Assembly: GCA_964291665.2 (NCBI GenBank) | Contig: OZ219814.1 | Location: 359,525 to 423,524, forward strand | Direction: 5' to 3' | DNA from: Thermodesulfobacteriota bacterium | GTDB lineage: Bacteria > Desulfobacterota_D > UBA1144 > Nemesobacterales > Nemesobacteraceae | Length of the DNA: 64,000 bases | Program-made: the position numbers and the translations under genes | Shown: positions 2,116 through 30,331 of the stretch, piece after piece | How positions within the stretch are numbered: the stretch's first letter is position 1 | How the letters are laid out: the number at the start of each line of letters is the position of its first letter | Notes under the pieces: model-generated | Seen by the model: only the letters and a program-made list of their open reading frames with translations | Database searches by the model: none | What the model was told of the DNA's origin: nothing

Positions 2116-3216
2116 TCAGACGTTGAACCTGAAAAACATGACGTCCCCGTCGCAGACCTCGTAGTCCTTTCCCTCAAGCCTCATCTTCCCGGCCTCCCTG
2201 ACCATCTGCTCGGAACCCTCCCTCACGTAATCCTCGTACGATATGGTCTCGGCCCTTATGAAGCCCCTCTCAAAATCGGTGTGGATGATCCCGGCCGCCT
2301 GGGGCGCCCTGGTTCCGCGCCTCACGGTCCAGGCCCTAACCTCCTTGGGGCCCGTGGTGAAATAGGTAAGAAGCCCGAGATTCGAGTACGCGCAGTTAAC
2401 CAGCCTGTCAAGCCCGGAAGCGGAAAGCCCGAGCTCCTCGAGGAAAACAGCCTTCTCCTCTCCCTCAAGCTCGGCTATCTCAGCTTCTATCCTTGCCGAG
2501 ACGGTGATGACGTCGTCTCCCGAGCGCTCGGCGCACTCCCTTACCCTGCTTACCTCCGGGTTTTCCCCGGCCCCCGAGATATCTTCCTCAGAGACGTTGC
2601 AGACGTAGATAACGGGTTTTTCGCTTAGAAGAAAAAGCTTCCGTACCGTGTCCGCGTTTCCTTCCGGGCAGGGAAAATCCCTCGCGCGCCGCCCGGTCTC
2701 TATAAACTCCCGAAGCGCCTTCACCGTTTCAAGCTCCCTCACTACTCCCTTATCTCCGCTTTTTGCCTGGTTTGTGAGTTTTTCCTCCCTTTTCTCCACA
2801 GTCTCGAGATCCTTCAGGATAAGTTCGTCCTCGATAGTGAGGATATCGCGGATGGCGTCGATTCCCTCCTCGACGTGGATCACGTTTTCATCCTCAAAGC
2901 ATCTTACGACATGGAGTATGAGGTCGACTTCCCTTATGTGGGACAAAAAGGCGTTTCCCCTTCCCTTTCCCTCTGAAGCCCCCTTAACGAGCCCCGCTAT
3001 GTCGACTATCTCAAGGCTCGTGGGAACGGTCCTCCGGGGTTTTACGATGTCTGAGATGGCATAAAGCCTCGGGTCCGGGACCCCGACCACTCCCACGTTA
3101 GGATCTATGGTGCAGAAAGGAAAATTGGAGGCCGCGGCGCCCGCGTTTGTAAGCGCGTTAAAGAGAGTCGACTTCCCGACGTTAGGGAGTCCCACTATTC
3201 CGCATCGAATTCCCAT
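2116..3216 (-). CDS. ychF: Ribosome-binding ATPase YchF (Obg-like GTPase family)
   Basis: 366-aa ORF. P-loop GIVGLPNVGKSTLFNALT and C-terminal TGS-like IHTDFERGFIRAE. Confidence 0.95.
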   Translation of the reverse strand: MGIRCGIVGLPNVGKSTLFNALTNAGAAASNFPFCTIDPNVGVVGVPDPRLYAISDIVKPRRTVPTSLEIVDIAGLVKGASEGKGRGNAFLSHIREVDLILHVVRCFEDENVIHVEEGIDAIRDILTIEDELILKDLETVEKREEKLTNQAKSGDKGVVRELETVKALREFIETGRRARDFPCPEGNADTVRKLFLLSEKPVIYVCNVSEEDISGAGENPEVSRVRECAERSGDDVITVSARIEAEIAELEGEEKAVFLEELGLSASGLDRLVNCAYSNLGLLTYFTTGPKEVRAWTVRRGTRAPQAAGIIHTDFERGFIRAETISYEDYVREGSEQMVREAGKMRLEGKDYEVCDGDVMFFRFNV

Positions 3217-3239
3217 AAGTTTCCGTACCTGTTAGGAAA

Positions 3240-3318
3240 TGGGGTGGATGACCGGATTTGAACCGGCGACCTCTTGGGCCACAACCAAGTGCTCTAACCG
3301 GGCTGAGCTACACCCACC
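3240..3318 (-). tRNA. tRNA-His (anticodon GTG)
   Basis: The reverse complement GGTGGGTGTAGCTCAGCCCGGTTAGAGCACTTGGTTGTGGCCCAAGAGGTCGCCGGTTCAAATCCGGTCATCCACCCCA folds as a cloverleaf. It has the extra 5' G(-1) typical of tRNA-His, anticodon loop TTGTGGC, and an encoded CCA. Confidence 0.9.
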
Positions 3319-3569
3319 GTTGAAACCTTCATTGTCTATGGAGCAAAAACCGAATTTGCTAATATACCGGCAACCCGGTTAACAAACAAATCACCCAGGA
3401 AAAGGCCCGCGGATAAACCCGGACCGCGAAGGGAAAGAGGAGCATCCGCGCTGGCTCACCGCGTGGTTTCCCTTCGGGTTGCGGTTTCCCCGCAGATGAT
3501 TTCACCCGACCCGCAAACACGCCGTTTGGTCTCTCCGTCCCGCCGAATAACGCGGGGATGGGCAACGAT

Positions 3570-3598
3570 TTGACAGGTCCGGTTCTGTCTGTTATTTA
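3570..3598 (+). promoter_or_regulatory. Possible sigma70-like promoter upstream of the LRR locus
   Basis: TTGACA (3570-3575), 17-nt spacer, TATTTA (3593-3598). The -10 element is weak. Confidence 0.25.
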
Positions 3599-3755
3599 TA
3601 CTTACCGTACAGTAGCTACCAACCGGTTAGTTTTTATGGTATAGTGTGCTAGCTAAAAAGTAAATTCACCCCAGGAAAATGCTGAAATGCCGCTTGCCAG
3701 CCCGAATGAAATAAAACCTCTTTCCATGAAAAATCGTAAAAACCTGATCGCTCCA

Positions 3756-3766
3756 CCCCCCCCCCC
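3756..3766 (+). repeat. Homopolymeric C11 tract
   Basis: Eleven consecutive C residues 24 nt upstream of the first candidate start (TTG 3790) of the signal-peptide frame, and inside the ATG-3687 ORF. Confidence 0.95.
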
Positions 3767-3789
3767 GTTTTTCTTCGGAGCGAAGGATC

Positions 3790-4155
3790 TTGCGGCAGGT
3801 GGAAGCAGTGAGGCGTTTGTCCGCGTTCTCCGTAAAGTGCTTCCTTGTGTGCCTGGCCGCGGCGTTTTTCGTTATTGCGGGAGACGCGCACGGGCAAACG
3901 ACCTGCAGCAATCATTGCCATCCACACCGCTGACTGACAAGGACGTTCTTATAATTCTTTACTGCGCTACTGACGGCGCTAACTGGAGAAACAAGACAAC
4001 TGGCTTAGCGCCATGGCGCTTGACAGTTGGAATGGCGTGACGGCTACGGACAACGGTACGACAGCTAATAACGATGATATGGTAACAAGATTAGGCCTCA
4101 ACTTTAATCAGTTAAGCGGGACAATACCCGCCGAGCTTAAGCGGTACTGACCAGC
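3790..4155 (+). pseudogene. 5' part of the LRR surface-protein gene: signal peptide plus LRRNT-like cap, split over three frames
   Basis: Frame 1 (3790-3933) reads LRQVEAVRRLSAFSVKCFLVCLAAAFFVIAGDAHGQ then a stop. Frame 0 reads LTDKDVLIILYCATDGANWRNK. Frame 2 reads NWLSAMALDSWNGVTATDNG...LNFNQLSGTIPAEL then a stop at about 4147. Confidence 0.6.
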
Positions 4156-4810
4156 TTGCTGCAACTGGGTTTCTTTATCAATCAGTTAAGCGGGACAATA
4201 CCCGCCGAGCTTGGAGGTCTGACCAGCCTGAAGACACTGGTTCTCTATGGCAATCAGTTAACCGGTACAATACCCACCGAGCTTGGAGGTCTGACCAGCC
4301 TGACCTGGCTGTATCTCCATGACAATCAGTTAAGCGGAACAATACCCACCGAGCTTGGAAGTCTGACCAGCCTGACGCATCTGTGGTTCAGTAACAATCA
4401 GTTAAGCGGAACAATACCCACCGAGCTTGGGGGTCTGACCAGCCTGGAGGAACTGAGGCTCGAAGAAAATCAGTTAAGCGGAACAATACCCACCGAACTT
4501 GGAGCTCTGACCAGCCTGAAGGCACTGCTTCTCGATAACAATCAGTTAAGCGGAACAATCCCCACAGAACTTGGAGCTCTGACCAGCCTGGAGGCACTGT
4601 ATCTCAACGATAACGAACTGAGCGGAGATATCCCTTCCGAGCTTGGAAGCCTGACCAGCCTGACGCAACTGTATCTCAATGACAACGAACTGAGCGGCAA
4701 CATCCCTCCTGAACTTGGAAGCCTCTCAACCCTTAAGTTTCTCTGGCTTGACGACAACGACCTGGTCACGGTTCCGACAGAACTTGAAACCCTGACCGAG
4801 GGCGCCTTGT
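4090..4810 (+). repeat. Tandem array of about ten 72-bp units (24-residue LRRs)
   Basis: aatcagttaagcgg[ga]acaataccc.ccgagcttgg recurs with an exact 72-nt period at about 4108, 4180, 4252, 4324, 4396, 4468 and 4540. Diverged units occur at 4612, 4684 and 4756. Confidence 0.9.
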
Positions 4811-4905
4811 TGGAATTATCCCTCTGGGGCAATGAACGATCTCGTATGGGAGATGCCAATGTCAAACGAGCTTGGCAGGAGAGCGGACAGGGCGGCTTTA
4901 CGTGA
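4156..4905 (+). CDS. Leucine-rich repeat protein fragment (plant-type 24-residue LRRs); probably part of a frameshifted larger gene
   Basis: 249-aa ORF made of NQLSGTIPTELGGLTSLxxLxLxx repeats. It has no signal peptide of its own, a TTG start inside a repeat, and overlaps the next fragment. Confidence 0.7.
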   Translation: MLQLGFFINQLSGTIPAELGGLTSLKTLVLYGNQLTGTIPTELGGLTSLTWLYLHDNQLSGTIPTELGSLTSLTHLWFSNNQLSGTIPTELGGLTSLEELRLEENQLSGTIPTELGALTSLKALLLDNNQLSGTIPTELGALTSLEALYLNDNELSGDIPSELGSLTSLTQLYLNDNELSGNIPPELGSLSTLKFLWLDDNDLVTVPTELETLTEGALLELSLWGNERSRMGDANVKRAWQESGQGGFT

Positions 4906-6199
4906 ACTTTACGACAATACCAAAGGTCTTACCTGGAAAAACTCCGGCAATTGGTTTTTCCATCAACTCCCCTCCTCCGATTGGTACGGGGTCACAACAA
5001 ATGACGACAATCGGGTAAGCGAACTCGATCTCTCCGATAACAACCTTAATGGAGAGCTTACAAACGCGTTTGAGGCGCTTGACAACCTTGAATCGCTCAA
5101 TCTCTCCGCAAACCCGCTAAGGGGAGAGATTCCCCCGGAACTCGGAAAGCTCACCAACCTGCAGGGGCTGTACCTAAGAGAAGACTCACTGAGCGGAGAA
5201 ATTCCCCCGGAACTTGGAGGCCTCACCAGACTGGCTCTACTGTTTCTTGACGGTAACTCACTAAGAGGAGAAATTCCCCCGGAACTTGGAGATCTGAGTG
5301 AACTGAGAGAACTGCATCTTGAGGAGAACTCATTAACAGAAATTCCCCCGGAACTCGGAAACTTGAGCAACCTGCGACAACTGGTGCTTGAAGAGAACCA
5401 ATTAAGCAGAATTCCCCCGGAACTCGGAAACCTGAGCAACCTGCGACAGCTGGCGCTTGCCTTTAACTCGTTAAGCGGGACAATCCCCACCGAACTTGGA
5501 GGTCTCTCCAACCTGCAATACCTGCTTCTTAACGACAATCCCATGCTGGGCGGAACGCTTCCGCTTGAACCGGCGGTTCATACCTCTTTTGATACTCTGG
5601 ACATAAGCAATACGGGTATCTGCGTGCCTGACACAGCGGAGTTTCGGGAATGGCTGGGAAGCGGAAGGTTCTTATTCTATGAAAGCGGTATTACCTGCGA
5701 ACAGAGCCCGGGAAAGGTAACGGGGGTGACGGTGGAGCCGGGAGAGTCGAGTCTCTCGGTATCGTGGGACCAGGTAACGGATGCAGACGGCTACAAGGTG
5801 CAGTGGAAGTCGGGTTCGGAGGAGTACGGGGCGATGGACCGTGAAGAGGAGGTCATGGGCGGGGACACGACCAGCTACACGATTACCGAACTTGTCCCGG
5901 GCACCACTTACACAGTAAGGGTGATAGCAACCAAGGGCGCTGAAGACTATGAGCCGTCAGACGACGTAACAGGTACGCCGATAGGACCAGAGCCTCCACC
6001 GCCACCGCCACCACCACCGCCACCTCCTCCACCTCCACCACCTCCACCGCCACTAGTGACTCTGGTACAGGTAACGGGGGTAACGGTGACTCCAGAGGTT
6101 TTGAGTCTCTCGGTATCTTGGGACCCAGGTAACGGATGCAGACGGCTACAAAGTGCAGTGGAAGTCGGGTTCGGAGGAATACGGAGCAATGGACCGTGA
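4832..6199 (+). CDS. LRR + fibronectin type III + polyproline protein fragment
   Basis: 455-aa ORF. Cap RAALRELYDNTKGLTWKNSGNW..SDWYGVTT, about 7 LRRs (NSLSGEIPPELGxLxxL), an FN3-like module (LSVSWDQVTDADGYKVQWKSG...YTVRVIA), and a run of about 20 Pro. Confidence 0.7.
   Translation: MNDLVWEMPMSNELGRRADRAALRELYDNTKGLTWKNSGNWFFHQLPSSDWYGVTTNDDNRVSELDLSDNNLNGELTNAFEALDNLESLNLSANPLRGEIPPELGKLTNLQGLYLREDSLSGEIPPELGGLTRLALLFLDGNSLRGEIPPELGDLSELRELHLEENSLTEIPPELGNLSNLRQLVLEENQLSRIPPELGNLSNLRQLALAFNSLSGTIPTELGGLSNLQYLLLNDNPMLGGTLPLEPAVHTSFDTLDISNTGICVPDTAEFREWLGSGRFLFYESGITCEQSPGKVTGVTVEPGESSLSVSWDQVTDADGYKVQWKSGSEEYGAMDREEEVMGGDTTSYTITELVPGTTYTVRVIATKGAEDYEPSDDVTGTPIGPEPPPPPPPPPPPPPPPPPPPPLVTLVQVTGVTVTPEVLSLSVSWDPGNGCRRLQSAVEVGFGGIRSNGP
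5020..5570 (+). repeat. Second LRR repeat block (69-72-bp units, about 7-8 copies)
   Basis: Recurring ...ggagaaattcccccggaacttgga... units encoding GEIPPELG. Confidence 0.8.
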
Positions 6200-6620
6200 A
6201 GAGGAGGTCATGGGCGGGGACACGACCAGCTACACGATTCCTGACCTCACAGCCGGCACTGAGTACACAGTGAGGGTGATAGCGACAAGGTCAGGCGCCG
6301 ATGACGGGCAGCCGTCAGATGAGAAAACAGGCACGCCGAAGTTTCCGGCTCCCGCACAGGTAACGGGGGTAACGGTGACTCCAGGGGTTTTGAGTCTCTC
6401 GGTATCTTGGACCCAGGTAGCGGATGCAGACGGTTACAAGGTGCAGTGGAAATCGGGCACGGAGAGCTTTGGCACCCACCAGCATGTGATCACTGAAGGC
6501 GGCACGACCACCTACACCATTCCTGACCTCGCAGCCGGCACTGAGTACACAGTGAGGGTGATAGCGACAAGGTCAGGCGCCGATGACGGGCAGCCGTCAG
6601 ACGAGGCAACAGGTACGCCG
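5704..6620 (+). repeat. Three near-identical FN3-encoding cassettes (about 290 bp each)
   Basis: Long identical nucleotide stretches are shared pairwise. One example, gcagacggctacaa.gtgcagtggaagtcgggttcggagga, is in cassettes 1 and 2. Another, gccggcactgagtacacagtgagggtgatagcgacaaggtcaggcgccgatgacgggcagccgtcaga, is in cassettes 2 and 3. Confidence 0.85.
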
Positions 6621-6692
6621 ATGGGATTAACACCACCTGCTCCAGAACCTCCTCCACCTCCAGACCTCCGCCGGTGGAGCCGGGGCCGATAA
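6153..6692 (+). CDS. FN3-repeat protein fragment (continuation of the LRR/FN3 gene in another frame)
   Basis: 179-aa ORF. It starts inside an FN3 module (QWKSGSEEYGAMDREEEV) and contains a second complete FN3 plus a Pro-rich linker. Confidence 0.6.
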   Translation: MQWKSGSEEYGAMDREEEVMGGDTTSYTIPDLTAGTEYTVRVIATRSGADDGQPSDEKTGTPKFPAPAQVTGVTVTPGVLSLSVSWTQVADADGYKVQWKSGTESFGTHQHVITEGGTTTYTIPDLAAGTEYTVRVIATRSGADDGQPSDEATGTPMGLTPPAPEPPPPPDLRRWSRGR

Positions 6693-7195
6693 TCCCCACT
6701 GAACCAGAACCTACAACACCCACCGAACCGGAGCAGCCGGAAAAGCCGGGGCCCGGCCAGATAACCGGATTAGAGGTAACAGAAGGGGTGGAGGAACTTT
6801 CGGTGTCATGGGATGAGTTTCCGGGGGCGAGCGGATACATAATCCGGTGGAAGTCCGAGGATTCGCAGGAGTTCGATCATGAGATGACCGTTACGGGAGA
6901 GAGTACGACAAGCTACACCATTACGGGTCTCGACCCGGAAATTAAGTACGTGGTGAGAGTGATGGCAACCGGCACCGAAAACCTGCCGTCGGAAGCTACG
7001 GGTGCTCCGAGAGCGAAGGATATTTCTGGTCCGCCACTAACCCAAGAGGCGGGACAGCAGGGTTGCGGAGCGTGCGCCATCGGTTCCGATGTTCCGGGAG
7101 AAGTCTCTCAAAGCGCCTTGCTTAATTTGCTTCTCGTCATGTCAGTGCTGCTTTTCGCTTCAAAAAGGGGAAGAACAAGGCCAGGGTCGGCGTAA
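6674..7195 (+). CDS. Pro/Glu/Thr-rich linker + FN3 + C-terminal Gly-Cys/hydrophobic/basic tail fragment
   Basis: 173-aa ORF. PTEPEPTTPTEPEQPEKPGPG linker, FN3 (LSVSWDEFPGASGYIIRWKS...YVVRVMA), and tail GCGACAIGSDVPGEVSQSALLNLLLVMSVLLFASKRGRTR. Confidence 0.6.
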   Translation: MEPGPIIPTEPEPTTPTEPEQPEKPGPGQITGLEVTEGVEELSVSWDEFPGASGYIIRWKSEDSQEFDHEMTVTGESTTSYTITGLDPEIKYVVRVMATGTENLPSEATGAPRAKDISGPPLTQEAGQQGCGACAIGSDVPGEVSQSALLNLLLVMSVLLFASKRGRTRPGSA

Positions 7196-7526
7196 GTTTC
7201 CAGGCAAGAGCCGCTGGCAAAAGCCGGCAGTCTGCAAGACTCCGGAGGATCTTCTTCTCTGCGGTTGCGGGAGACAGGCGCCGTCAACGGGTGAGTTTCG
7301 CTAAAACACGCGGAGGGTTGCCCGACGGAATGAACCGGTGGATTCGGGCATGGAAGGTTTTAGCCGAGTTAATCAGAAAGGACAGTTTCCCACCCACTCG
7401 TCCTTTACTTGAGAGTCCCAGCGTATCGGCAGCTTAAAAACCCCGTATTTATTCGCCCGGCTGACTCCCCGCAAAGGTGAAAAACCGCCGTTTTCCCCGC
7501 CGCCCGAGAGGTCTCGGCGGGGATAT

Positions 7527-7554
7527 TTGATTTAATCGAGAACTTGTTTATACT
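7527..7554 (+). promoter_or_regulatory. Candidate sigma70-type promoter of aceB-aceA
   Basis: TTGATT (7527-7532), 16-nt spacer, TATACT (7549-7554), about 50 nt upstream of the aceB start. Confidence 0.4.
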
Positions 7555-7602
7555 AGGCAGTTTTTATTCAATAATAACAGGCATCCGAGGAGCGAAGAAC
7601 AG

Positions 7603-9486
7603 ATGGGCACCACACTGCACATAAGAGACAACATAGAGCAATCCTACGGGGACGTGTACACGCCGGAGGCGCTTGAGGCCCTTGAATTCATGGCCCGCTA
7701 TAACGGCGAGCAGAAGGCCATCATGGAAAAAAGGACCCAGAGAAGAAAAAGGCGCTACGAATCCAAGGAAAGAATAACCTTTCTCGATCCAGATTCCCTC
7801 ATTCCGCGCACCAGTATCAAGGTCCGAGACGCAAGGGACGGAAAATTCGAGGGACCGGAGATTCCCCATGACCTGAAAAGACAGTGGATACAGGGAACCG
7901 GACCCGCGGCAAAACCGAACTCCCCTGTTGAAAAAAGCATAAGAAACGTCGCCTACGCACTTCTCTCGGGCGCGGACGGGTGGATGTTCGACGGAGAGGA
8001 CGCCCTGGGGCAGATCTCAACCATGTCCCTAGATAACCAGCGCAATCTAAAGCTCGCGATCGCGAGGGACGAGGTGTTCATGAGGACCGCGGAAGGCGTG
8101 GCCGGGGAGATGAACAGGTGGGGACAGAGCTTCTTCGGACACGACATAATAGAGGACTGGGAAAAGCAGCTTGACTTCACCACGGTCATTTTCAGGGCGA
8201 GGGGACTTCACCTCGATGACCGCCACATACGCGACGCAGACGGCGTAGCGCTTTCTGCTTCCGTGGTCGACATTACTCTCTTTGTCGTTAACAACTACAG
8301 GGAGCTCGCCAGGAGAAACTCATCCATAGTCCTTTACCTCCCGAAGATCCAGACCGCCGAGGAAGCGGCGCTCTGGAACGAGATGCTCTCGGCCCTTGAG
8401 GGCCACGTCGGGCTTCCCGAAGGCACGATAAAGGTGTACGTGCTTATAGAGCAGCTTGAGGAGACGTTCCAGCTAATGGAGATAAGGGCAGCCCTCGGGA
8501 AACACTTCGTCGGATTTAACACCGGCAGATGGGATTACATAAACAGCGTCTCTGACGCCATGGCGTGGGATGAGGATTTCATTAACCCTAACATAGAGTC
8601 TATCACCATGACCTACGGATACATGAGAAACTACGAGGACCGCGTGAGAAGAGCCGTTAACACCCCGGACGTAAACGGGAACTTCGCGCTCTGGCAGGGA
8701 GGAATGGAGCCTAACATTCCCGTCGGGTCAAAGGAAGGGGTAGAGAGCAGCATGGAGAAGGCCTACGCCGGGGCCGTTAGGGAGCAGCAGGAAGGGGCAA
8801 GCGGCAAATGGGTCGCCCACTGGAAGATGGTTCACATAATAAGACCCGTGTGGGAGAAGGAGGGCGAGGAGAACCAGCTCGGAAGGGAGTTTCCCCCGCT
8901 TACCTACACCCAGGAGGACTCAGACGGCCTCATACTCCTTGAGCCCGCCCCGAGAACCATAAGGGGAGCCCGCAACCTGCTTAGCGTGGGACTTCAGTAC
9001 GGAAACGCGTTCGGCCAAGGATTCCAGGCCGCGGCGCTTAAGCCCGCCGATTTCTTCGGAAACGACGACATCCTCTACCTGATGGAGGACGCCGCCACCG
9101 GGGAGATAAGGCTGAGCATTCTCTGGGAGTGGGTACACAAGGGAGCAAAGCTCACCGAGGACGACCCCGAGACCGGGCTTAATGCCGGGGACACTTTCAC
9201 CGCGGAGGTTTTCGAGAGGCTGCTCGAGGAAGAGTACGCAAAGCTCCAGGCGGCAAGCGACAGGGACGTGCACGACATCTCAAAGCCCACCACCCTTCCC
9301 ATAGCCAGGCAGATAGTGAGGGCCTACGTGCTTGACGACGTGAAGGTGCCGTGGTACATAGACCTGCTCAACATAAACCTAAACAACCACGACCATGACG
9401 TGGCCTCGCAGAGAATCGAACTCTACATGACGGAGTTTGCGGGCAATGACAGGAGAATCACCGAGAACCTCGATTTCGTAATCTAG
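7603..9486 (+). CDS. aceB: Malate synthase (A-type, with insertions)
   Basis: 627-aa ORF. Blocks match E. coli AceB by eye: [69 protein letters not shown] and [19 protein letters not shown]. Confidence 0.93.
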
Positions 9487-9530
9487 GTTCCCGAAGAAAC
9501 AACCATCTTTATTTTCAGGAGAACATATCC

Positions 9531-11801
9531 ATGAGCCAGTTAGAAGCTGAGATACGGAAGACGAAGAGGTATTTCTCAAGCAGGCGCTTTAGGGGAATAA
9601 CCCGTCTTTACTCGCCCCGCCAGGTGGTGGAGCAGAGAGGAACCATAAGAAGGGACTACTCTATCGCGAAAAACGCCGCGGAGGCATTCTACAAGAGACT
9701 CCGCGAGCTTTTCGCGGAGAAAAAGCAGATAACGTCCTTCGGTCCCTATTCGCCCGGACAGGCGGTCATGATGAAAAGAAAGGGAATAGAGGGCATATAT
9801 CTCGGCGGATGGGCCACGTCGGCCAAGGGATCGATCGGCGAGGACCAGGGAGCGGATCTCGCAAGCTATCCGCTGAGCCAGGTGCCGGACGAGGCGGCCC
9901 CCATAGTGAGGGCTCTTCTCGCCGCGGACAAAAACCAGAGATACAACCGCGCGAGGATGACCGAGAAGGAAAGGCAGCAGACGCCCGAGATCGACTACAG
10001 CCCCTTCATAGTCGCCGACGCGGACACGGGACACGGCGGGGACGCCCACGTGAGAAACCTTGTCAGAAGGTTCGTCGAGGCCGGCGTCACGGGCTATCAC
10101 ATAGAAGACCAGAAGCCCGGAACCAAGAAATGCGGTCACCAGGGCGGAAAGGTTCTCGTGCCTTCTGATGAGCAGATAAAAAGACTTAACGCCGCCCGCT
10201 TTCAGCTCGATATAATGGAAGTGCCGGGGATAATAGTTTCAAGGACCGACGCCGAAGCCGCCACCCTTCTTGACGGAAACGGGGACGAGCGCGACCAGCC
10301 GTTTGTCCTGGGAGCGACCAAACTCAATATCCCGAGCTACAAGAACGCCTATCTCACGATCCTTAAAAGGATCCACGAGGGGGGCGTAAAGGAGATAAAC
10401 GGACACAAGCTCTACAAGATAAGCAAGGAGACCTACGCGGAAACGGACAGCTGGCTTGAGGAAACCGGAATAGCGTCGTTTATAGACGAGAACATAGAGG
10501 CGATGAAGGGGGACACCCAGGAGCTTGAGACCGCCTTGGATTCCGTAGTCACCAAGTTCGTCGAGATATGGGAAGAGGAATCCGGCCTCAGCACCTTCGG
10601 CGAAACGATAGAGACGCTCATGGAGTTTAACATGGAGCAGGGCATTGAATTCGACATGACCGTCGAGCAGTGGAGGGAGTTTGCCAGGACCGCTTCCACG
10701 AAAGACGCTATGGAGAAGGCCGATTCCCTGGGAATCGATTACATATGGGATCCCGAGATTTCAAGAACGCCCGAAGGGTACTACCAGGTAAAGGGCGGTA
10801 TAGAATACGCGATCGCCAAATCTCTTGCCGTGGCGCCTTTTGCCGACCTGCTCTGGATGGAGACCAAGACTGCGGACCTTGAGGACGCAAGGCAGTTCGC
10901 AGACGCTATCCACGAGGTTTTTCCGGACAAGATGCTTGCCTACAACCTCTCTCCCTCCTTTAACTGGGACACGACGGGAATGACCGACGAGGAGATGAAG
11001 AAATTCCCCGAGGAGATAGGAAAGCTCGGCTTCGTGTTCGACTTCATAACCTACGGAGGCCACCAGATAGACGGCATGGCCGCAGAAGAGTTCGCGACCG
11101 CGCTCATGGAAGACGGCATGCTCGCCCTGGCGCGCGTGCAGAGAAGACTGAGGCTCATAGATTCGCCTTACAAGACTCCGCAGACCCATGTCGGGGGACC
11201 CCGCATGGACGGAGCGCTCGTGGCAAGTTCCGGAAGAACCGCGACCACGAAGGCAATGGGCAAGGGCTCGACCCAGTTCCAGCACCTGGTTCAGACGGAG
11301 ATTTCCATCAACCTTCTCGAGGAGTGGCTTGAGGCCTGGGCAAGGCACAACAAGCTCAAGGACACCCTCTCCGCCGAACTTAAGCCCCATACCGTGGGAA
11401 CTTTCGTTCTCGAGCTTAACATCCTAAACGGCAAGGGCGAGAAGGTGGCGGACGTCATATTCGAAATACTGCAGGACAGGAAGGGAGAGAAGATACTGAC
11501 TGTGAGGGACGAAAACATTGCTGAGGCCCTTCGCCAGAAACGCCTCGCGACCCTGCTTCACCTGTTCCTGATTCACCGCTACAGAACGGATTTCGTGCAT
11601 TACGTAAGCCCCACGGAAGACAACCTCATGCAGACCAAGGGTATGATGAGGCTCGGGATCTACGAATCGGTCAACACCGAAGTCGGTCACATAATAGTGG
11701 CGAAGACAAACGTCGAATACGTAAAGGAGCTGCTTAGCCCCGATCGCAGGGAACTCAAGAAGCTCATCGCGAAAAAGACCGGCAGACGCAAGAAGAAGTA
11801 A
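9531..11801 (+). CDS. aceA: Isocitrate lyase, long form (about 750 aa, ICL2/eukaryote-like)
   Basis: 756-aa ORF. ICL signature [12 protein letters not shown] and DADTGHGG, with a large internal insertion and a C-terminal extension relative to 430-aa bacterial ICL. Confidence 0.93.
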
Positions 11802-16445: not shown

Positions 16446-18545
16446 ATGATATCTCTTAAAATATCGGAAATCCACTCGAGGGACTCGGGCAAGGGTTACG
16501 CAAGGATAAGCCCCATGGACATGCGGGAACTGGGCCTTACGTCCTGGGACCTGGTACAGATAGACGGAAGGAGAAAAACCGTCGTGAGAGCCCTGCCGCT
16601 TGACGCCGAAGAACAAGAAATGGATTCCGTAATAGAAATAGACACTGTAACCAGAGAGAACGCAGGGGTTGAGCTTGACGACATAGTAATAGTGACGAAA
16701 GCCGACCTTGAGAAGGCAAGCAGGATAACCCTGTGTCCCAGAAACAAGGCATTTCTCTACGACCCGTCCAAAAGCAAGCACCTCTGCAACAGGCTCGAAG
16801 GGCTCGCCGTAACAGTCGGAGACAGGGTATCTGTGAGAGTGTCCGCCGCCAAGACCGAAGATTTCGACGTGCTTACCACGATGCCTGAGCACTCGGTTGT
16901 CATAAGCCAGAAAACCCGCATGGACGTGATACAGAGGCCAAAAACCAAGGTGGACGCTGAAAAGGTCTCGTATACGGACATAGGCGGGCTTTCAAGCCAG
17001 ATAAAAAGAATAAAAGAGATTCTCGAACTTCCGATACGCTTCCCCTCGCTTTTTGAAAAGCTCGGGGTCCAGCCGCCCAGGGGAATCCTTCTCACGGGAC
17101 CCCCGGGAAGCGGAAAAACCCTGCTCGCAAAAGCCATAGCGTTTGAGACGGATTCAAATTTCCAGGTAATAAACGGCCCCGAGGTAATTCACAGGTTCTA
17201 CGGAGAGAGCGAAGCCAATCTGCGCCAGATATTCGAGAACGCTACCAAGAACCAGCCGTCAATAATATTCCTGGATGAACTGGACGCGATAGCTCCCCGC
17301 CGAGACAAGGTTACGGGAGACGTTGAAAAAAGGGTGGTGGCCCAGCTTCTATCCCTCATGGACGGTCTCACGCACAGAGGAAACGTTACGGTTATCGGAG
17401 CGACCAATCTTCCGGACATGATCGACCCCGCGCTTCGCCGCCCGGGCAGGTTTGACAGGGAAATTCACCTTCCGGTTCCCGATACCGAGGCCCGTCTGGA
17501 GATATTCCAGGTTCATTCAAGAAGCATGCCGCTTTCAAACGACGTGGATCTTCAGAGGCTCTCCGAGCTCTCAAGCGGCTACGTGGGAGCCGATATAGAA
17601 AATCTCTGCAGGGAAGCTGCCATAAACTCTCTTACCAACATTCTGCCGGACATGGAACCGAATTTCGTCTCCAACGTCGCACACAGCTTTCTCGTGGAAG
17701 TAAGCATGGAAGACTTCCTTGAGGCACTTCGAAATATCCATCCCTCCGCGATAAGGGAGATAGTGGCTGAGATACCGAAAACCTCCTGGGATGACGTCGG
17801 AGGTCTTGAGAGCGTAAAAGACGACCTGATTGAATCCGTCATATGGCCCATGAAGCACAGAAATTTCTACGAGGCCCTGGACGTAGAGTCACCCAAGGGA
17901 ATACTTCTTCACGGCCCTCCGGGAACGGGTAAGACCCTTCTCGCAAAAGCTCTTGCCAACAGAACGGAAGTCAACTTCATTTCCATAAAGGGAGCGGAGC
18001 TTCTCTCCAAGTATGTAGGAGAATCGGAGCGCGCCGTAAGGGAAGTCTTCAAAAAGGCAAAGCAGGTTTCTCCCTGCATAGTGTTCTTCGACGAGCTTGA
18101 CGCCCTTTGCCCGAGACGCTCAGAATCCAACTCGACCCGCGTGAGCGAAAGAGTGGTAAGCCAGCTGCTCGCCGAGATTGACGGGGTCGAAGAACTCCCG
18201 GATGTTCTGGTGCTTGCCGCGACAAACAGGATCGACATGGTAGAACCGGCGCTTCTTAGACCGGGAAGATTCGATCTGGTGGTTGAGATTCCAACTCCGT
18301 CAAAACAGGAAATTCTCGAGATCCTGAAAATCCACACCCGGAAAAAGCCTCTCGGAACGGACGTGAAACTCACCGCGCTCGCAGAACAGCTCGAGGGCAG
18401 AACCGGAGCTGACGTAAAGCTCGTATGCAACAGGGCTTCCCTTCACGCGATAAAAGAACATCTGGGGAAAAACAGAAAAATCATCAAACTCTGCAGAAGA
18501 CATTTTGACCTGGCGCTTTCGGAACTGCAGAAAAGAAACGCTTAA
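16446..18545 (+). CDS. Cdc48/p97/VAT-like AAA+ ATPase (N domain + two AAA modules)
   Basis: 699-aa ORF. Cdc48-N-like start ([37 protein letters not shown]), two Walker A motifs ([16 protein letters not shown]), two DELD Walker B motifs, and RPGRFD sensor motifs in both modules. Confidence 0.9.
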
Positions 18546-23967: not shown

Positions 23968-24684
23968 ATGATACCGATTAGAAGCACAATAAAAACCGAA
24001 ATCGTACCCTATGTGAATTACGTGCTTTTGGCCGCAAACGTGCTGGTCTTTGTGTACACCCTTTCTCTTACAGGGGAGACGCTTGAGGTTTTCTACCAGA
24101 CACACGGTATTGTGCCCAGCAAGATAACCGCCCTTGAGACCTACGGATTCTTCGACAGAACGGCAAAATATTTCAGTTCCATGTTCATCCATGAAAACTG
24201 GCTTCACCTGGCCGGAAACCTGATCTTTCTATACATATTCGGAAACGCAATCGAGGACCTGCTGGGTCACGCAAGATACCTGCTTTTCTATCTCGTGTGC
24301 GGGCTGGTAGCCGTATTCATCCAGGTGGCCTTAAACTCCCTCTCCGCGGTTCCGGTAATAGGAGCAAGCGGGGCAATTTCCGGAGTCCTGGGCGCGTACA
24401 TGCTCTTTTTTCCAAGATCAAGAATTCTTACGCTTCTCATAGTCCTGGTGTTTGTCTACTTCGTGCGCATAAGGGCTTATCTTTTCATAATTTTCTGGTT
24501 TGCCGTTCAGTTTCTGACCGGAATCGGCTATATTGGTGACGCGGGAACCGAGGGTCTGTGGGCGCATATGTCAGGATTCGCCTGCGGAGCCGTAGCCGGA
24601 GGGAGTTTTCTTTACACGCGGGGATACCGAAGCAAAAAGTACAAAGCCGGTTACGGAACGGGGTGGTACGGAGAAAATGACTAG
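23968..24684 (+). CDS. Rhomboid-family intramembrane serine protease
   Basis: 238-aa polytopic ORF. FIHENWLHLAGNLIFLYIFG (rhomboid WR/HxxxN region) and GASGAISGVLGAYM (GxSG catalytic Ser), with a downstream His in WAHMSGF. Confidence 0.88.
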   Translation: MIPIRSTIKTEIVPYVNYVLLAANVLVFVYTLSLTGETLEVFYQTHGIVPSKITALETYGFFDRTAKYFSSMFIHENWLHLAGNLIFLYIFGNAIEDLLGHARYLLFYLVCGLVAVFIQVALNSLSAVPVIGASGAISGVLGAYMLFFPRSRILTLLIVLVFVYFVRIRAYLFIIFWFAVQFLTGIGYIGDAGTEGLWAHMSGFACGAVAGGSFLYTRGYRSKKYKAGYGTGWYGEND

Positions 24685-25933: not shown

Positions 25934-27196
25934 CTACGTTCGTCTACGGCACAAGCGGTTTCTCCACAAAACCGCCGGGAACACGGCGGATATGATCAAA
26001 AGCAGGTTGAACAGGGAGCTTTTAGAAGCACCGACCGTCCCCCCAGCAACCGCACATCCCTTCTCAACCTTCTCCACTTTCGGATAGATGCCGGAACCGA
26101 AAATAATAACCCGGTCACTCTTGGGCAGGTTCAAGGCTTTTACATAGCCCAGCTTGGGCGAAATGCCGGGGGCGCCACCCGGGTCATAGACATCGTCCTC
26201 CTTTGTTCTCGGGTCGTCCCAAAGATATAGAATAAAGCCGTCCTCTCCGGGTTCTTTCGCCTCTTTAATGATGGTGGGACCTATATGTACTCCGTTGGCG
26301 TCCGTAACCAGCAGGCTTGCATCCTCAAGGGATTTATTGTTCCCGTTAAAAAACACTTTCTCGCCCTCATCATACATCATAAAAAGGTAGACAGCGTTCT
26401 TGTCAGATTTCCAAGGCCCTTCTGCCGACCTCATGACCGGACGGTAGAGTGAAATTTTCGAAAGATCGCAAGTCGTCGGGTCAGAAGAATCAACGCAGTG
26501 CCTAATGCTGAAGACCTTGTAGGCCTTAATCGCCTCCTCAACGAATTTCTTCAGGGTCTCGCGGTCATTCACCTCGCTGGCCGTTATTGAAGGCTTGTAA
26601 TCTGAACCCGGAAGTTGCGCAAAAGTTCGGGCGGGCAACTTATCATGATGATAGCCTGCGATCAAAAGAAGCTGCTTGCCGAAGTCCAGGCTGGAGAAAT
26701 AGGTGACCGCGCAGCTCCATCTCTGTGTGCCGGAATAATCATACTTCAAGCAGACTTCCTGCCCGTCTGCCGCTACTGCGGCTGTGCTCAGCCGCTTCAG
26801 ACTCGCAATGTCGATTCCTTCGGTATCGGATGGAAGACTGAACAACCTTCTTTCTTCCGCTTCTCCGCCGTTTCCGTGAATGAAGACCTGGCCATCTTTT
26901 GGATCCATGACAATAAGATAGACGGAACCGGACTTCCAGAGCCCCTCCCGCCTCATCTCCCGGCGGAACCTTGAAGCCGTAACAAAGTCAAGGCTCTCCA
27001 TATGCTCTTTTGCGTGCAGCAGAAATTCTCTCAGGGTCGCTTCCTTCGTTTCGCCCGCTGCGGCCGCTACGTCGCCGGCCGTTTTGCTCGGGACGTTGAA
27101 ATCCTCATAATGCGCGCTTGCGGGACGCAAGTCGGAAAAAAGGCCGACCAACATGAGTACGCACGAAAAAAGACCTGCCAATGCTGTGGTTTTCAT
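25934..27196 (-). CDS. Secreted protein with two Cache-like modules and a Gly-Cys/hydrophobic/Arg-rich C-terminal tail
   Basis: 420-aa ORF. Signal peptide MKTTALAGLFSCVLMLVGLFSDLRPASA. Internal duplication (GLWKSGSVYLIVMDPKDGQVFIHGNG vs GPWKSDKNAVYLFMMYDEGEKVFFNGNN). Tail GCAVAGGTVGASKSSLFNLLLIISAVFPAVLWRNRLCRRRT. Confidence 0.7.
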   Translation of the reverse strand: MKTTALAGLFSCVLMLVGLFSDLRPASAHYEDFNVPSKTAGDVAAAAGETKEATLREFLLHAKEHMESLDFVTASRFRREMRREGLWKSGSVYLIVMDPKDGQVFIHGNGGEAEERRLFSLPSDTEGIDIASLKRLSTAAVAADGQEVCLKYDYSGTQRWSCAVTYFSSLDFGKQLLLIAGYHHDKLPARTFAQLPGSDYKPSITASEVNDRETLKKFVEEAIKAYKVFSIRHCVDSSDPTTCDLSKISLYRPVMRSAEGPWKSDKNAVYLFMMYDEGEKVFFNGNNKSLEDASLLVTDANGVHIGPTIIKEAKEPGEDGFILYLWDDPRTKEDDVYDPGGAPGISPKLGYVKALNLPKSDRVIIFGSGIYPKVEKVEKGCAVAGGTVGASKSSLFNLLLIISAVFPAVLWRNRLCRRRT

Positions 27197-27228
27197 GACA
27201 CCCCCGTTTTATTCCACTCTAGCACACA

Positions 27229-28923
27229 TCAGTCCTTTATGTGATGTTTTTCGTGAACCGGTCTTATCAGGATGTTGCTTATCAAAGCGATTATTAATAA
27301 CGCTGCCATCACATACATCGTCGAGTTGTACAACGAAGCCGTCGGGTCTACTGTCCCCTCAGGCGCGATATCCATGAGTTTCGCGAGCGTTACGGTTTTA
27401 TTCTGCACCAGTATCTCGAGGTCGTTAACTCCGGCTCCGAAAGTCTTGACGAACTCATACGGCGATACCCTTTCGGCAAGGCGATTGATTTCGACCATAA
27501 GCGAATGATCTCTAAGCGAGGTGACTGCCAAGGGACCGAGCACGCCGGCGACGCTCCAAGCGGTCAGCAGACGTCCATAGATACCGCCGACGTAACGGGT
27601 ACCGAACAGGTCAGCGAGATATGCCGGAACAGTAGCGAAGACTCCCCCATAGAAAGTAAAAATTATCATCGTCGCCGCATAAAACATTAACAGCCAGAGA
27701 ATCGAAGGATTAAGATTCACCTGATGGGCGGCCACGGGAATGGACAAATACAACAAAAGACCGACCGCGCAAAATATCGAACACGTATTGCGTCGCCCGA
27801 GTTTGTCAGAGGCGCTCGCCCACATAATGCGCCCCAGCATGTTGAACACGCCGATCATCAAAACGTAAGTGGCGGCAAAGGTGACGTCAACAATATCCGG
27901 AAGCGCGTTACTGAATATCTCAGTCATCATTGTTTTGGCGACAGAGATAATTCCGATTCCGGCTGTAACGTTAAGGCACAATATGAGCCATACCTGGTAG
28001 AACTGAGGTGTTTTTAACGCCTGATCGGTATGCACATCTTTCTGACTGATCATTCGCTTGCTAGAATCCTCGCCGGCCGGCGGTTCCCATCCTCGCGGCT
28101 TATACCCTGGAACCGGGACACGATATAAAAATGCCGAGACCATTATCACAAGAAAATAAACCACTCCGAAGAGAAGAAAGGTCTCGGCGACTCCCGCGGA
28201 ACCGGTGCCAACCAAATACACCCCGGCCGCTTCGGTTCCGGGAACAAGCACATGTGCCGCATCCGCAGCTCCCGCGATGACGACCTCCTTGAGCTTGCCG
28301 CCGACTTCGGCAAAGCGTCGGCCTGAATGAATGATCATATCGACGGCGTCGACCGTCCCCAAGTATTGAGGCGCCTTGTAAAAGTACTGGAGGAAAAATT
28401 CCTTAAGCGGCACTGCGATTATCGCCCCGCCGCCGAAGCCCATGATCGCCATTCCGGTAGCCAGGCCGCGTCGGTCCGGAAACCAGCGAATTAAATTGCT
28501 GACCGGAGAAACATAAGCAAGACCCAGACCGATACCGCCGATTACGCCGTAACCCAGATAGATCAGCCACAGTTGATGCAAGGTAACACCGAGACTGCTG
28601 ATCATGTAGCCACCACCCCAAAGACACGCTGCCACCACGCCGACTGTGCGTGGTCCCACTTCCTCAATCCATTTGCCGGCAAACGCTGCCGTAAGCCCAG
28701 TGAACGCGATCGCGACGGTGAATATCCACACTACCTGGCGCAGGGTCCAGTCGTCCGCCGCGCTAGTGGCAGCGCCAAGCACCTCAATTAACGCAGGGTT
28801 GTATATGCTCCAGGCGTAAACGGAACCAATGCACAGGTGAACCGCAATAGAGGGAGGCGCAACCAGCCAGCGGTTGAATTCCGGACCTCTAACGATACGT
28901 TCCTTTGATAAAAGACTCGCCAT
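27229..28923 (-). CDS. MFS transporter (oxalate/formate antiporter-like family)
   Basis: Polytopic ORF. N-terminus MASLLSKERIVRGPEFNRWLVAPPSIAVHLCIGSVYAWSIY resembles OFA-family MFS. The start is set at the internal ATG 28923 because the longer track ORF (to 29007) overlaps tRNA-Thr. Confidence 0.8.
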   Translation of the reverse strand: MASLLSKERIVRGPEFNRWLVAPPSIAVHLCIGSVYAWSIYNPALIEVLGAATSAADDWTLRQVVWIFTVAIAFTGLTAAFAGKWIEEVGPRTVGVVAACLWGGGYMISSLGVTLHQLWLIYLGYGVIGGIGLGLAYVSPVSNLIRWFPDRRGLATGMAIMGFGGGAIIAVPLKEFFLQYFYKAPQYLGTVDAVDMIIHSGRRFAEVGGKLKEVVIAGAADAAHVLVPGTEAAGVYLVGTGSAGVAETFLLFGVVYFLVIMVSAFLYRVPVPGYKPRGWEPPAGEDSSKRMISQKDVHTDQALKTPQFYQVWLILCLNVTAGIGIISVAKTMMTEIFSNALPDIVDVTFAATYVLMIGVFNMLGRIMWASASDKLGRRNTCSIFCAVGLLLYLSIPVAAHQVNLNPSILWLLMFYAATMIIFTFYGGVFATVPAYLADLFGTRYVGGIYGRLLTAWSVAGVLGPLAVTSLRDHSLMVEINRLAERVSPYEFVKTFGAGVNDLEILVQNKTVTLAKLMDIAPEGTVDPTASLYNSTMYVMAALLIIALISNILIRPVHEKHHIKD

Positions 28924-28971
28924 TGGCTGTATCACGCAGTTAGTCGCCGAGGTGGAACTGAAACTACATAC

Positions 28972-29043
28972 AGCCGACGAGGGGATTCGAACCCCTGACC
29001 TGCTCATTACGAATGAGCTGCTCTACCACTGAGCTACATCGGC
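28972..29043 (-). tRNA. tRNA-Thr (anticodon CGT)
   Basis: The reverse complement GCCGATGTAGCTCAGTGGTAGAGCAGCTCATTCGTAATGAGCAGGTCAGGGGTTCGAATCCCCTCGTCGGCT forms a cloverleaf with anticodon loop TTCGTAA. Confidence 0.88.
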
Positions 29044-29191
29044 AGTAATCATCTGACTAATTATTACACAGGAAAAAATTTTGTGAATAAATATGTGTGG
29101 GAATTATATACAATGCTAGCCAAACTGCCGATTTGTTTAAGAACGGTGGTAGGTTATAACACGCTCGGTAGTGCTCGGCATAAAGAAGAAG

Positions 29192-29208
29192 TGATCAAAC
29201 CATTTTTG
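29192..29208 (+). repeat. 17-bp direct repeat, left copy (tgatcaaaccatttttg)
   Basis: Exact match to 30363-30379. Related gat[ac]aaacca motifs lie nearby (29213-29225). Confidence 0.9.
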
Positions 29209-29305
29209 TGATTTGATAAAACCACCTCTCAAACTATACTTTTTGTCAACTTTCTTTACAATTCCAATTCCCATAAGTTAAAAATAACTTTAAGGAGGTA
29301 TAAAT

Positions 29306-30331
29306 ATGAAATTCGGCATTGGTTATTACAGTCTTCAATCACCCTCTCACCATCCAAGACCACATAGTGACCTGTACAGCGAAATGCTTACTGAAGTGGA
29401 GATGGCAGATCAGATGGGGTTTGACTCCGTATGGCTGACGGAGCATCACTTTCTGGACGATGGTTACTGTCCCTCAATGCTTATAGCAGCTTCGGCAATG
29501 GCCGCCAGAACTAAGAATATCCGTATAGGTACAGGTGTGTTGCTGATACCCCTTCATGATCCGATCCGAATAGCCGAAGATGCTTCCGTTGTTGATCTCA
29601 TTTCCGGCGGAAGATTTATACTGGGGCTGGGACTGGGTTACAGGAAAGAAGAGTTTGATGGATTTGGCAGGCAGTTAAAGGAGCGCAGGGGCAGGATTGA
29701 AGAAAGCCTTGAGATACTGAACAAGAGTTGGAGTGATGATCCGTTCAGCTTTGATGGAAAGTATTATCAGGTAGAGAATTTGAATGTAACTCCCAAACCC
29801 ATTCAACAGCCAATACCAATATGGATCGGTGCTTTTACAGAACCCGCCATAAGGAGAGCAGCTCGGATTGGTGCTCCGCTTTACGTTCCGGCAATCGGCG
29901 TAATACCGATTATCAAATACCTTTTTGATATGCATTCATCTTTCTTGAAGGAATATGGCAAAGACCCCGATGAAGTTGAAAAGCCACTTGTCAGAGAAAT
30001 TTATATTTCCAACAAAAAAGCCGACGATGCTTGGGAGGATATAAAAGAGCACGTTACTTATACGGCCAAGGGATATGCTTCATGGGGTTCAATGGTGGAT
30101 ACTGAGGGCAACTTGCTGAGTGATCCGTCAGATCCGATCCTGTATGACATTGCAAGGCAGCAGTCAATTATAGGAACCCCCGAAGAATGTGTTGAGACTA
30201 TCATAAAATACCGGGAAAGTTTACCTATAGACAACCTGATATGTAGATTTAAATTCCCAGGTATTTCGCATGAAGAAGCAGTAAGGTCAATGAAGTTGTT
30301 TGTGGATAAGGTGCTGCCTGAAGTAGTATAG
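29306..30331 (+). CDS. LLM-class (luciferase-like) flavin-dependent oxidoreductase
   Basis: 341-aa ORF. MKFGIGYYS...GFDSVWLTEHHF...IRIGTGVLLIPLHDPIRIAEDA..., typical of the bacterial luciferase family. Perfect AAGGAGG SD 8 nt upstream. Visibly AT-richer codon usage than the neighbours. Confidence 0.88.
   Translation: MKFGIGYYSLQSPSHHPRPHSDLYSEMLTEVEMADQMGFDSVWLTEHHFLDDGYCPSMLIAASAMAARTKNIRIGTGVLLIPLHDPIRIAEDASVVDLISGGRFILGLGLGYRKEEFDGFGRQLKERRGRIEESLEILNKSWSDDPFSFDGKYYQVENLNVTPKPIQQPIPIWIGAFTEPAIRRAARIGAPLYVPAIGVIPIIKYLFDMHSSFLKEYGKDPDEVEKPLVREIYISNKKADDAWEDIKEHVTYTAKGYASWGSMVDTEGNLLSDPSDPILYDIARQQSIIGTPEECVETIIKYRESLPIDNLICRFKFPGISHEEAVRSMKLFVDKVLPEVV

Follow-up and report, generated by a model that had tools for sequence, protein, structure and literature searches.

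Exactly four Cys-containing tripartite signals have been described, each of them paired computationally with a glutamic intramembrane protease of the CPBP/Rce1 type (10.1101/2023.06.07.544157); the paired enzymes are MrtX/C/P, MrtJ, MrtS and MrtA (Haft, 10.1101/2023.06.07.544157). The lineage-specific forms of these signals diverge to the extent that custom models are required (10.1101/2023.06.07.544157). Experimental proof for MrtX came only in 2025, when this protease was reported to cut the MYXO-CTERM of TraA in a Cys-dependent manner, also in E. coli (Guo, Haft, Wall; PMC11980579). A literature search yielded no paper linking the Dadabacteria with any CTERM signal. Here we consider two C-terminal tails encoded in a stretch of 64,000 nucleotides from a Thermodesulfobacteriota bacterium (contig OZ219814.1, positions 359,525 to 423,524; hereafter, the window), one of which closes an LRR/FN3 locus and the other a Cache-like protein. 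The original prediction, made from the letters of the window, took these tails for a candidate sorting signal outside the described families. This notion is supported, inasmuch as nothing among the carriers of the tail, its model matches or its signature refutes it, the sorting itself being argued by analogy. With a probability of about 0.55, we read the two tails as two instances of one modular domain for C-terminal sorting/anchoring, which is restricted to the lineage of the (sponge-associated) Dadabacteria and belongs to the MYXO-CTERM-type class.

Two tails in one window

Each of the two tails is about 40 residues long and displays the same succession of a cysteine, a membrane helix and an arginine-containing end; the sequences originally given for them both translate exactly. 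The tail of the Cache-like protein (25937-26059, minus strand; translation GCAVAGGTVGASKSSLFNLLLIISAVFPAVLWRNRLCRRRT) scores 64.8 bits with a hidden Markov model (HMM) of Cache-family tails. Its invariant Cys (codon 26054-26056) is followed by a disordered Gly/Ser/Ala spacer, a transmembrane (TM) helix at about 25964-26014 that includes the Asn of the FNLLL core (26006-26008), the basic cluster RNRLCRRRT (25937-25963) and the stop codon (25934-25936). The tail of the LRR/FN3 locus (7061-7195, plus strand; GCGACAIGSDVPGEVSQSALLNLLLVMSVLLFASKRGRTRPGSA up to the stop codon at 7193-7195), which was placed by translation, alignment register and HMM score, has the family-conserved Cys at 7073-7075, the Asn at 7124-7126, a TM helix at about 7115-7162 and the basic cluster KRGRTR at 7163-7180. 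This Cys is the second one of the tail: in the family alignment, GCGA-C-AIGSD pairs with GG-C-AIAAGSD via the second Cys and not via the first Gly-Cys, and a near-identical relative, P0158, reads GSGACAIGSD, having lost the first Cys but kept the second. Thus, of the Gly-Cys initially believed to be common to both tails, the conserved Cys is indeed present, whereas the register proposed for the LRR/FN3 tail was wrong. There is no third tail in the window.

Since Leu, Gly, Ser and Ala are abundant in both of these short tails, a chance or merely compositional resemblance of two hydrophobic C-termini has to be considered. However, a test HMM built from the Cache-family tails alone, with the LRR tail excluded, retrieves the LRR/FN3 tail with 24.4 bits. 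For the 981 segments of the six-frame translation of the window, this corresponds to E = 8.4e-7, and the second-ranked segment scores 6.5 bits; the real tail reaches 25.9 bits as compared to a maximum of 13.0 bits among 2000 composition-preserving shuffles. Given scores so far above those of the shuffles and of the next segment, as well as 181 carriers with a sharp signature (see below), a chance resemblance was rejected, its probability being negligible; the claim that the tails are alike in more than composition holds.

Carriers, signature and distribution of the tail

A profile derived from an alignment of 26 tails (A1) was searched against 1.84 billion representative proteins and detected the tail in 181 representative clusters at E <= 1e-3, with 41 at E <= 1e-10 and a best value of 7e-29; a word-indexed search with the bare 45-residue tail returned no matches, too few 5-mers being shared. 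In just 14 proteins does the match lie more than 25 residues from the C-terminus. In seven of these, the signal peptide of the next paralogue comes directly after the tail, so that these proteins represent merged tandem genes; the other seven continue for 27-70 residues beyond the tail, and in P0059 a further internal match is present, likewise with an extension of this sort behind it. It may be mentioned that gene callers at times fuse tandem neighbours (merged reading frames P0058-P0062), which makes the tail look internal, with the next signal peptide directly behind it. Tandem arrays of tail-bearing Cache-like genes do occur, as in the Dadabacteria chromosome OX638332.1 (1.59 Mb), where the 60 kb sampled contain five or more tail genes, including three in a stretch of 8 kb (2666-10138 of locus L008). 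The carriers and relatives that the prediction had anticipated are, therefore, at hand.

When the tails are removed, the carrier bodies fall into unrelated clusters, namely, 154 Cache-like, 29 LRR-type, 4 of an unknown family and 1 other. The non-Cache clients show, by Pfam, the architectures LRR+SRCR, LRR+FN3 and Calx-beta (+PKD-like), so that at least four unrelated types of ectodomain (Cache-like, LRR/FN3/SRCR, Calx-beta/PKD and unknown) bear the tail. A hydrophobic stretch is found at the N-terminus of 124 of the 152 long carriers. The gene for one of the clients, the Calx-beta/PKD-like protein P0193, adjoins the F-type conjugation genes TraU, TrbC, TraF, TraH and TraG, which are in fragments (L017 435-12522, a contig of low coverage), a context which hints that some clients of the tail travel on mobile elements.

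The signature was quantified on 199 unique tails. The Cys is invariant in 198 of them and is preceded by Gly in 180 and by Ala in 16 tails; the three positions behind it are occupied by Ala (166), by Ile (162) or Val (30; together 192 of 196), and by Ala (166), respectively. The Asn is conserved in 175 of 196 tails, with Phe (114) or Leu (70) before it, and is separated from the Cys by 15-16 residues in 160 of 196 (range 15-20). The 13 residues after the Asn are free of charged residues and Pro in 166 of 197 tails, and beyond the helix there are, on average, 3.65 Lys or Arg residues. An acidic or Gly-rich linker comes before the signature, and the Lys/Arg cluster is located at, or a few residues from, the C-terminus. 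The consensus can be written as [GA]-C-A-[IV]-A-x-G-x(8-12)-[FL]-N-L-[LF]-L-[IV]-x-S-x-L-F…R/K. With the addition of so many members, the signature became sharper, as judged by the counts for the Cys, the Ile/Val, the Asn and the spacing, and did not dissolve into generic TM similarity. These counts, along with the basic residues and the terminal helix of the structural model (see below), also bear out the tripartite layout of signature, TM helix and basic end at the extreme C-terminus. We consider it very probable that the tail is a real, shared domain family.

The taxonomic range of the tail is narrow. When each GTDB species was represented by a single genome and scanned with the pattern FNLLLI[VI]S.. 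(alignment A2), eight confirmed tail loci were obtained in five metagenome-assembled genomes (MAGs), all of which are titled Candidatus Dadabacteria or Thermodesulfobacteriota bacterium, and a scan of JGI metagenomes gave three more, from the sponges Petrosia ficiformis (LXNJ) and Sarcotragus foetidus (LXNI). The strictness of this pattern implies that these eight and three loci undercount the carriers. Hence, every tail locus that could be traced belongs either to a Dadabacteria/Thermodesulfobacteriota MAG or to a sponge metagenome. In the NCBI taxonomy, the Dadabacteria are a class of the Thermodesulfobacteriota and include the order Candidatus Nemesobacterales; the title of a 2023 ISME J paper presents the Nemesobacterales as a sponge-specific clade.

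Client genes, anchoring and the search for a processing enzyme

The Cache-like client is encoded by an intact open reading frame (ORF) of 420 codons (25934-27196, minus strand) and was characterized through Pfam, its homologues, an AlphaFold2 (AF2) model and Foldseek. It starts with a clear, canonical signal peptide (27113-27196; MKTTALAGLFSCVLMLVGLFSDLRPASA) and comprises two tandem sCache_2/PAS-like modules, for which the Pfam matches are weak (dCache_2 and sCache_2; dCache_2 at 1.2e-6), followed by the tail, with no cytoplasmic output domain. The AF2 model (mean pLDDT 84.6) shows two confident tandem PAS/Cache-like modules, a disordered segment with pLDDT below 50 that includes the Cys motif (residues 376-394), and a terminal helix (residues 392-418) that begins at L-F-N of the FNLLL stretch. 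The best single-domain Foldseek matches are the periplasmic sCache sensor domains 4k08, 5g4y and TlpB (3ub6). Together with the missing output domain, these matches indicate that the client is a stand-alone extracytoplasmic binding protein of the Cache type, and the tail accounts for the TM-helix ends of stand-alone Cache-like proteins in the Dadabacteria, which is of use for annotation. Of its 57 homologues, about 50 have the tail, even at a body identity of 28-35%. Four homologues of the Acidobacteriota type are without it and stop right after the last Cache strand (FGSGIYP), and one has another C-terminal domain, PF13860, in its place; thus, the tail is a separable module. The gene immediately follows, in the same orientation, a gene for an MFS transporter that passes the NCBIfam cutoff for L-lactate MFS transporters. 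This arrangement (25934-29007, minus strand) suggests that the Cache-like protein is a carboxylate-binding accessory protein of the transporter. The mechanical MFS ORF (27229-29007) overlaps a tRNA-Thr gene (28972-29043), so that the true start should be further downstream.

The second client locus (3808-7195, plus strand), as defined by its ORFs, Pfam LRR and fn3 matches, tblastn and the DNA at the junctions, consists of the remains of one or two genes for surface proteins with LRR, FN3 and poly-Pro linkers. It had been described as a single LRR/FN3 protein, but there is no such ORF. The tail is carried by an ORF of 173 codons (6674-7195), and the upstream coding potential for LRR and FN3 is spread over the ORFs 4156-4905, 4832-6199 and 6153-6692, in other frames; the LRR blocks are found at 4147-4836 and 4841-5650, and the FN3 modules at 5699-6151, 6117-6632 and 6743-7060. 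In tblastn comparisons with the intact relatives P0181, P0164 and P0185, the homology extends over all three plus-strand frames, from about 3945 to 7195, with at least five frame changes, one of which is a single extra C (gac-C-cag) at about 6126 within an otherwise perfect FN3 repeat. A signal-peptide-like stretch, FLVCLAAAFFVIAGDAHG, is encoded at 3808-3897, in a frame that differs again from those of the other pieces. Accordingly, the N-terminal signal peptides ascribed to both proteins are confirmed for the Cache-like one, whereas for the LRR/FN3 protein the assembly contains only this out-of-frame stretch. Since the other genes of the window, some 55 in number, are long, unbroken ORFs, the locus is probably either a decaying pseudogene or an artefact of assembly or polishing that was driven by repeats. 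Some of the frame changes adjoin tracts of Pro codons, including a run of 20 (5993-6052), and slippage-prone phase variation may be considered along with a pseudogene and an assembly artefact. The locus lies directly beside a tRNA-His gene (3240-3317, minus strand).

When considering what the tail might do, its likeness to MYXO-CTERM and MrtX can be used as a guide, and we infer cleavage, sorting and lipidation from this analogy. The N-terminal signal peptide would direct the protein to Sec export, upon which the tail helix would keep it anchored in the inner membrane while the basic cluster stays in the cytoplasm. The invariant Cys, now in the periplasm, would be modified, probably by a lipid, and a housekeeping intramembrane protease would then cut just beyond the Cys and remove the helix. 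The mature ectodomain, be it Cache-like or of the LRR/FN3/SRCR/Calx-beta 'eukaryote-like', adhesin-type kind, would be left tethered to the envelope or the surface. The likeliest candidate for the protease would be a glutamic protease of the CPBP/Rce1 type encoded elsewhere in the genome; all four described Cys-containing signals are paired with CPBP proteases. The assignment of the enzyme to the CPBP type is tentative, and we would put it somewhat short of an even chance.

Several observations weigh against the view of the tails as a sorting domain of the MYXO-CTERM-type class. Client diversity is lopsided, about 80% of the carriers belonging to one Cache-like superfamily, so that part of the spread could reflect the expansion of paralogues and not the shuffling of a signal. 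The search for genes of the CPBP family (PF02517) covered the window and some 0.3 Mb of DNA from related Dadabacteria and found none; with at most 10-15% of a genome covered, this is weak negative evidence. The window tails have no match at E <= 10 among the models of NCBIfam (release 20.0) and Pfam. Finally, in MYXO-, Synerg- and CGP-CTERM, a shorter polar stretch separates the Cys from the helix than in the Dadabacteria tail.

The first two of these observations also fit an uncleaved C-terminal membrane anchor, in which the Cys motif and the intramembrane Asn would serve oligomerisation, partner docking, or disulfide or cofactor chemistry, and which would have spread by duplication and domain shuffling within the Dadabacteria. 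The succession of signal peptide, ectodomain, TM helix and short basic tail is a bitopic topology, and most of the clients are sensor modules of the Cache-like type, which in other bacteria are tethered to the membrane. However, a plain anchor needs neither an invariant Cys at a fixed distance of 15-16 residues nor a G-C-A-I-A motif in a disordered linker, and this motif is kept over ectodomains that are unrelated or just 28-35% identical. Furthermore, a like architecture marks a cleaved signal in four other systems (10.1101/2023.06.07.544157; PMC11980579), and the Cache-like clients lack a cytoplasmic output domain that would profit from a permanent TM link. An anchor of this kind appears rather unlikely to us, and we think that the tail probably is a recognised or processed sorting signal.

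The only intramembrane protease encoded in the window is of the rhomboid family (23968-24684, plus strand; Pfam Rhomboid, 1.7e-26), with intact GASG and AH catalytic motifs, and the tail might be the substrate of this enzyme, in a rhombosortase-like system with a Cys-containing signal. The rhomboid gene is separated from the Cache-like client by a single gene, PFK, and this layout is kept in seven syntenic loci; in many tails, the Cys follows a run of GGG and is itself followed by small residues; and a housekeeping rhomboid of Vibrio is reported to be able to cut a GlyGly-CTERM protein as well (PMC11389362). The genomic evidence, however, speaks against this. The rhomboid and PFK genes overlap and run in one direction, whereas the client gene converges on them and shares its direction with the MFS gene; the protein has no match at E <= 0.001 to NCBIfam models, including rhombosortase; and there are 5668 homologues at E <= 1e-10, with 43-51% identity in Bacteroidota and other lineages that lack the tail. 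In distant Dadabacteria, with rhomboid orthologues that are 62%, 60% and 49% identical, the QueG-hypothetical-rhomboid-PFK block is kept with no tail gene within 10 kb. In one of these loci (L020, 10713-13541), PFK abuts the HemY/ferrochelatase genes, which in the window lie about 4.5 kb further on, so that the intervening segment (25934-30331), comprising the Cache-tail gene, the MFS gene, tRNA-Thr and a luciferase-like monooxygenase gene, is an insertion. Adjacency thus fails as a clue to the enzyme: the rhomboid gene is a generic housekeeping gene that became a neighbour of the client owing to the insertion. As other tail loci have no rhomboid nearby and no tail matches GlyGly-CTERM, the rhomboid of the window is probably unrelated to the tail, and its role as the processing enzyme is improbable.

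Near the other tail loci examined, there are no rhomboid, CPBP or exosortase genes, as would be expected for a housekeeping sortase with many clients. The multi-TM ORFs found close to tail genes were considered as candidates for the enzyme and discarded, being MscS, AmiS/UreI, H+-PPase, permeases, MgtE, EamA, SulP, SBF and prepilin peptidase, with no CPBP protease or exosortase among them. A prepilin peptidase gene adjoins, in an arrangement that is kept across the Dadabacteria loci, the gene for a double-AAA ATPase (16446-18545, plus strand), which passes the NCBIfam cutoff for the CDC48 subfamily (810 vs 802.65 bits). Elsewhere in the window, the adjacent genes for malate synthase (627 aa) and isocitrate lyase (756 aa) form a glyoxylate-shunt pair (7603-11801, plus strand); both proteins are much longer than the best-matching NCBIfam models (511 and 527 positions, respectively).

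Comparison with described CTERM signals

Should our reading be correct, the tail would be a surface-protein sorting tag of sponge-associated Dadabacteria that is captured by no curated model. Its clients include the LRR, FN3, SRCR and Calx-beta 'eukaryote-like' proteins that are usually invoked in host interaction, and the presence of the tail on proteins of this type would imply display on the cell rather than release. Since the tail is recognisable, an HMM of it can be used to list, from sequence, the likely surface-tethered proteome of an uncultured symbiont.

The search with the curated models agrees with the expectation that the two tails have no confident match to a described CTERM model, and places their relatives at the border of known families. 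The commonest weak match is to JDVT-CTERM, which was seen in five of the 26 A1 tails (best E 0.005; highest printed score 13.8 bits vs a cutoff of 27). MYXO-CTERM (TIGR03901.2) matches two of the 26, as well as a tail outside A1 at 12.2 bits, and a single faint match to CGP-CTERM was obtained (13.4 bits vs a cutoff of 21). The MYXO-CTERM cutoff of 20 bits is not reached by the window tails and is marginally passed by one relative, the tail of P0015, with 21.8 bits over model positions 5-34 of 34, which is in keeping with the earlier choice of MYXO-CTERM as the nearest analogue. For the GlyGly-, PEP-, PGF- and Synerg-CTERM and LPXTG models, there were no matches at E <= 10 among the 39 tails scanned, nor is a PEP, PGF or LPXTG motif present in the tail alignment.

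These results also bear on the possibility that the tail is handled by an exosortase/archaeosortase-type transpeptidase or by a new class of enzymes. The tripartite layout is common to PEP-CTERM and PGF-CTERM, and no enzyme gene was found in the DNA examined, which would suit such machinery; against it stand the lack of PEP and PGF motifs and model matches, the lack of an exosortase gene in the same DNA, and the invariant Cys, which points to the CPBP-linked class. Machinery of this kind is, in our opinion, very improbable.

A resemblance of another kind may be drawn between C-A-[IV]-A, a Cys followed by two aliphatic residues and X, and the eukaryotic CaaX box, the substrate motif of Rce1, which is the founding CPBP protease. 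Rce1 cuts just after a lipid-modified Cys. Unlike the CaaX box, the Dadabacteria motif is located about 40 residues from the C-terminus, is extracytoplasmic and has a TM helix behind it; prenylation is not known in such a setting. Processing without a CPBP protease, either by the ubiquitous housekeeping rhomboid or by an as yet undescribed enzyme whose target is a periplasmic C-A-I-A of CaaX type, upon a new kind of Cys lipidation, is a long shot. Were it to hold, none of the described CTERM systems would provide a precedent for this sorting pathway, by which sponge symbionts would display 'eukaryote-like' LRR/FN3/SRCR/Calx-beta proteins on the cell surface. Unless the enzyme does prove to be other than a CPBP protease, no shift of paradigm is implied. 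The sorting domain proposed here would extend the paradigm of Cys-containing CTERM signals and CPBP proteases to another lineage. The combination of C-A-[IV]-A with an intramembrane Asn is a sharply conserved variant which could help to define how the protease recognises its substrates.

As far as the described systems are concerned, GlyGly-CTERM/rhombosortase (TIGR03501/TIGR03902) has in common with the Dadabacteria tail the tripartite layout, the Gly run before the motif, exported surface clients and, in the window, a rhomboid nearby, but there is no model match, an invariant Cys is not a feature of GlyGly-CTERM, and the rhomboid of the window is of the housekeeping type. JDVT-CTERM (NF033191/MrtJ) comes closer in having one invariant Cys and a Leu-rich helix after a polar element, and one subgroup of the Dadabacteria tails contains GSDSTPR, which recalls its DP motif; however, the near-invariant DP nine residues after the Cys of JDVT-CTERM is not found in the Dadabacteria tails, and JDVT-CTERM occurs once per genome, beside MrtJ, whereas the Dadabacteria have several clients and no adjacent CPBP gene.

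The likeness is greatest to MYXO-CTERM (TIGR03901; myxosortases MrtX, MrtC and MrtP), a signal of the Myxococcota and Bradymonadales. Both are domains of about 35-45 residues at the extreme C-terminus of proteins with signal peptides; both consist of a Gly-flanked invariant Cys, a spacer, an uncharged TM helix and an Arg-rich end; and both have many unrelated clients per genome, with the enzyme not expected to be adjacent. The differences, apart from the taxon and the longer spacer, are that 24 of the 26 tails tested, in addition to those of the window, have no match to the model, that the signature of the Dadabacteria is C-A-[IV]-A-x-G and not GC(G)C, and that a conserved Asn within an [FL]-N-L-[LF]-L block marks the start of the helix in the Dadabacteria tail. 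The weakest matches to the tail profile, P0184 and P0176, which have GCGGC or GGCAVSG signatures and no Asn, look intermediate between the Dadabacteria tail and the classical MYXO-CTERM. Taken together, the Dadabacteria tail is best regarded as a fifth Cys-containing tripartite signal, specific to its lineage and at the edge of the reach of the MYXO-CTERM model.

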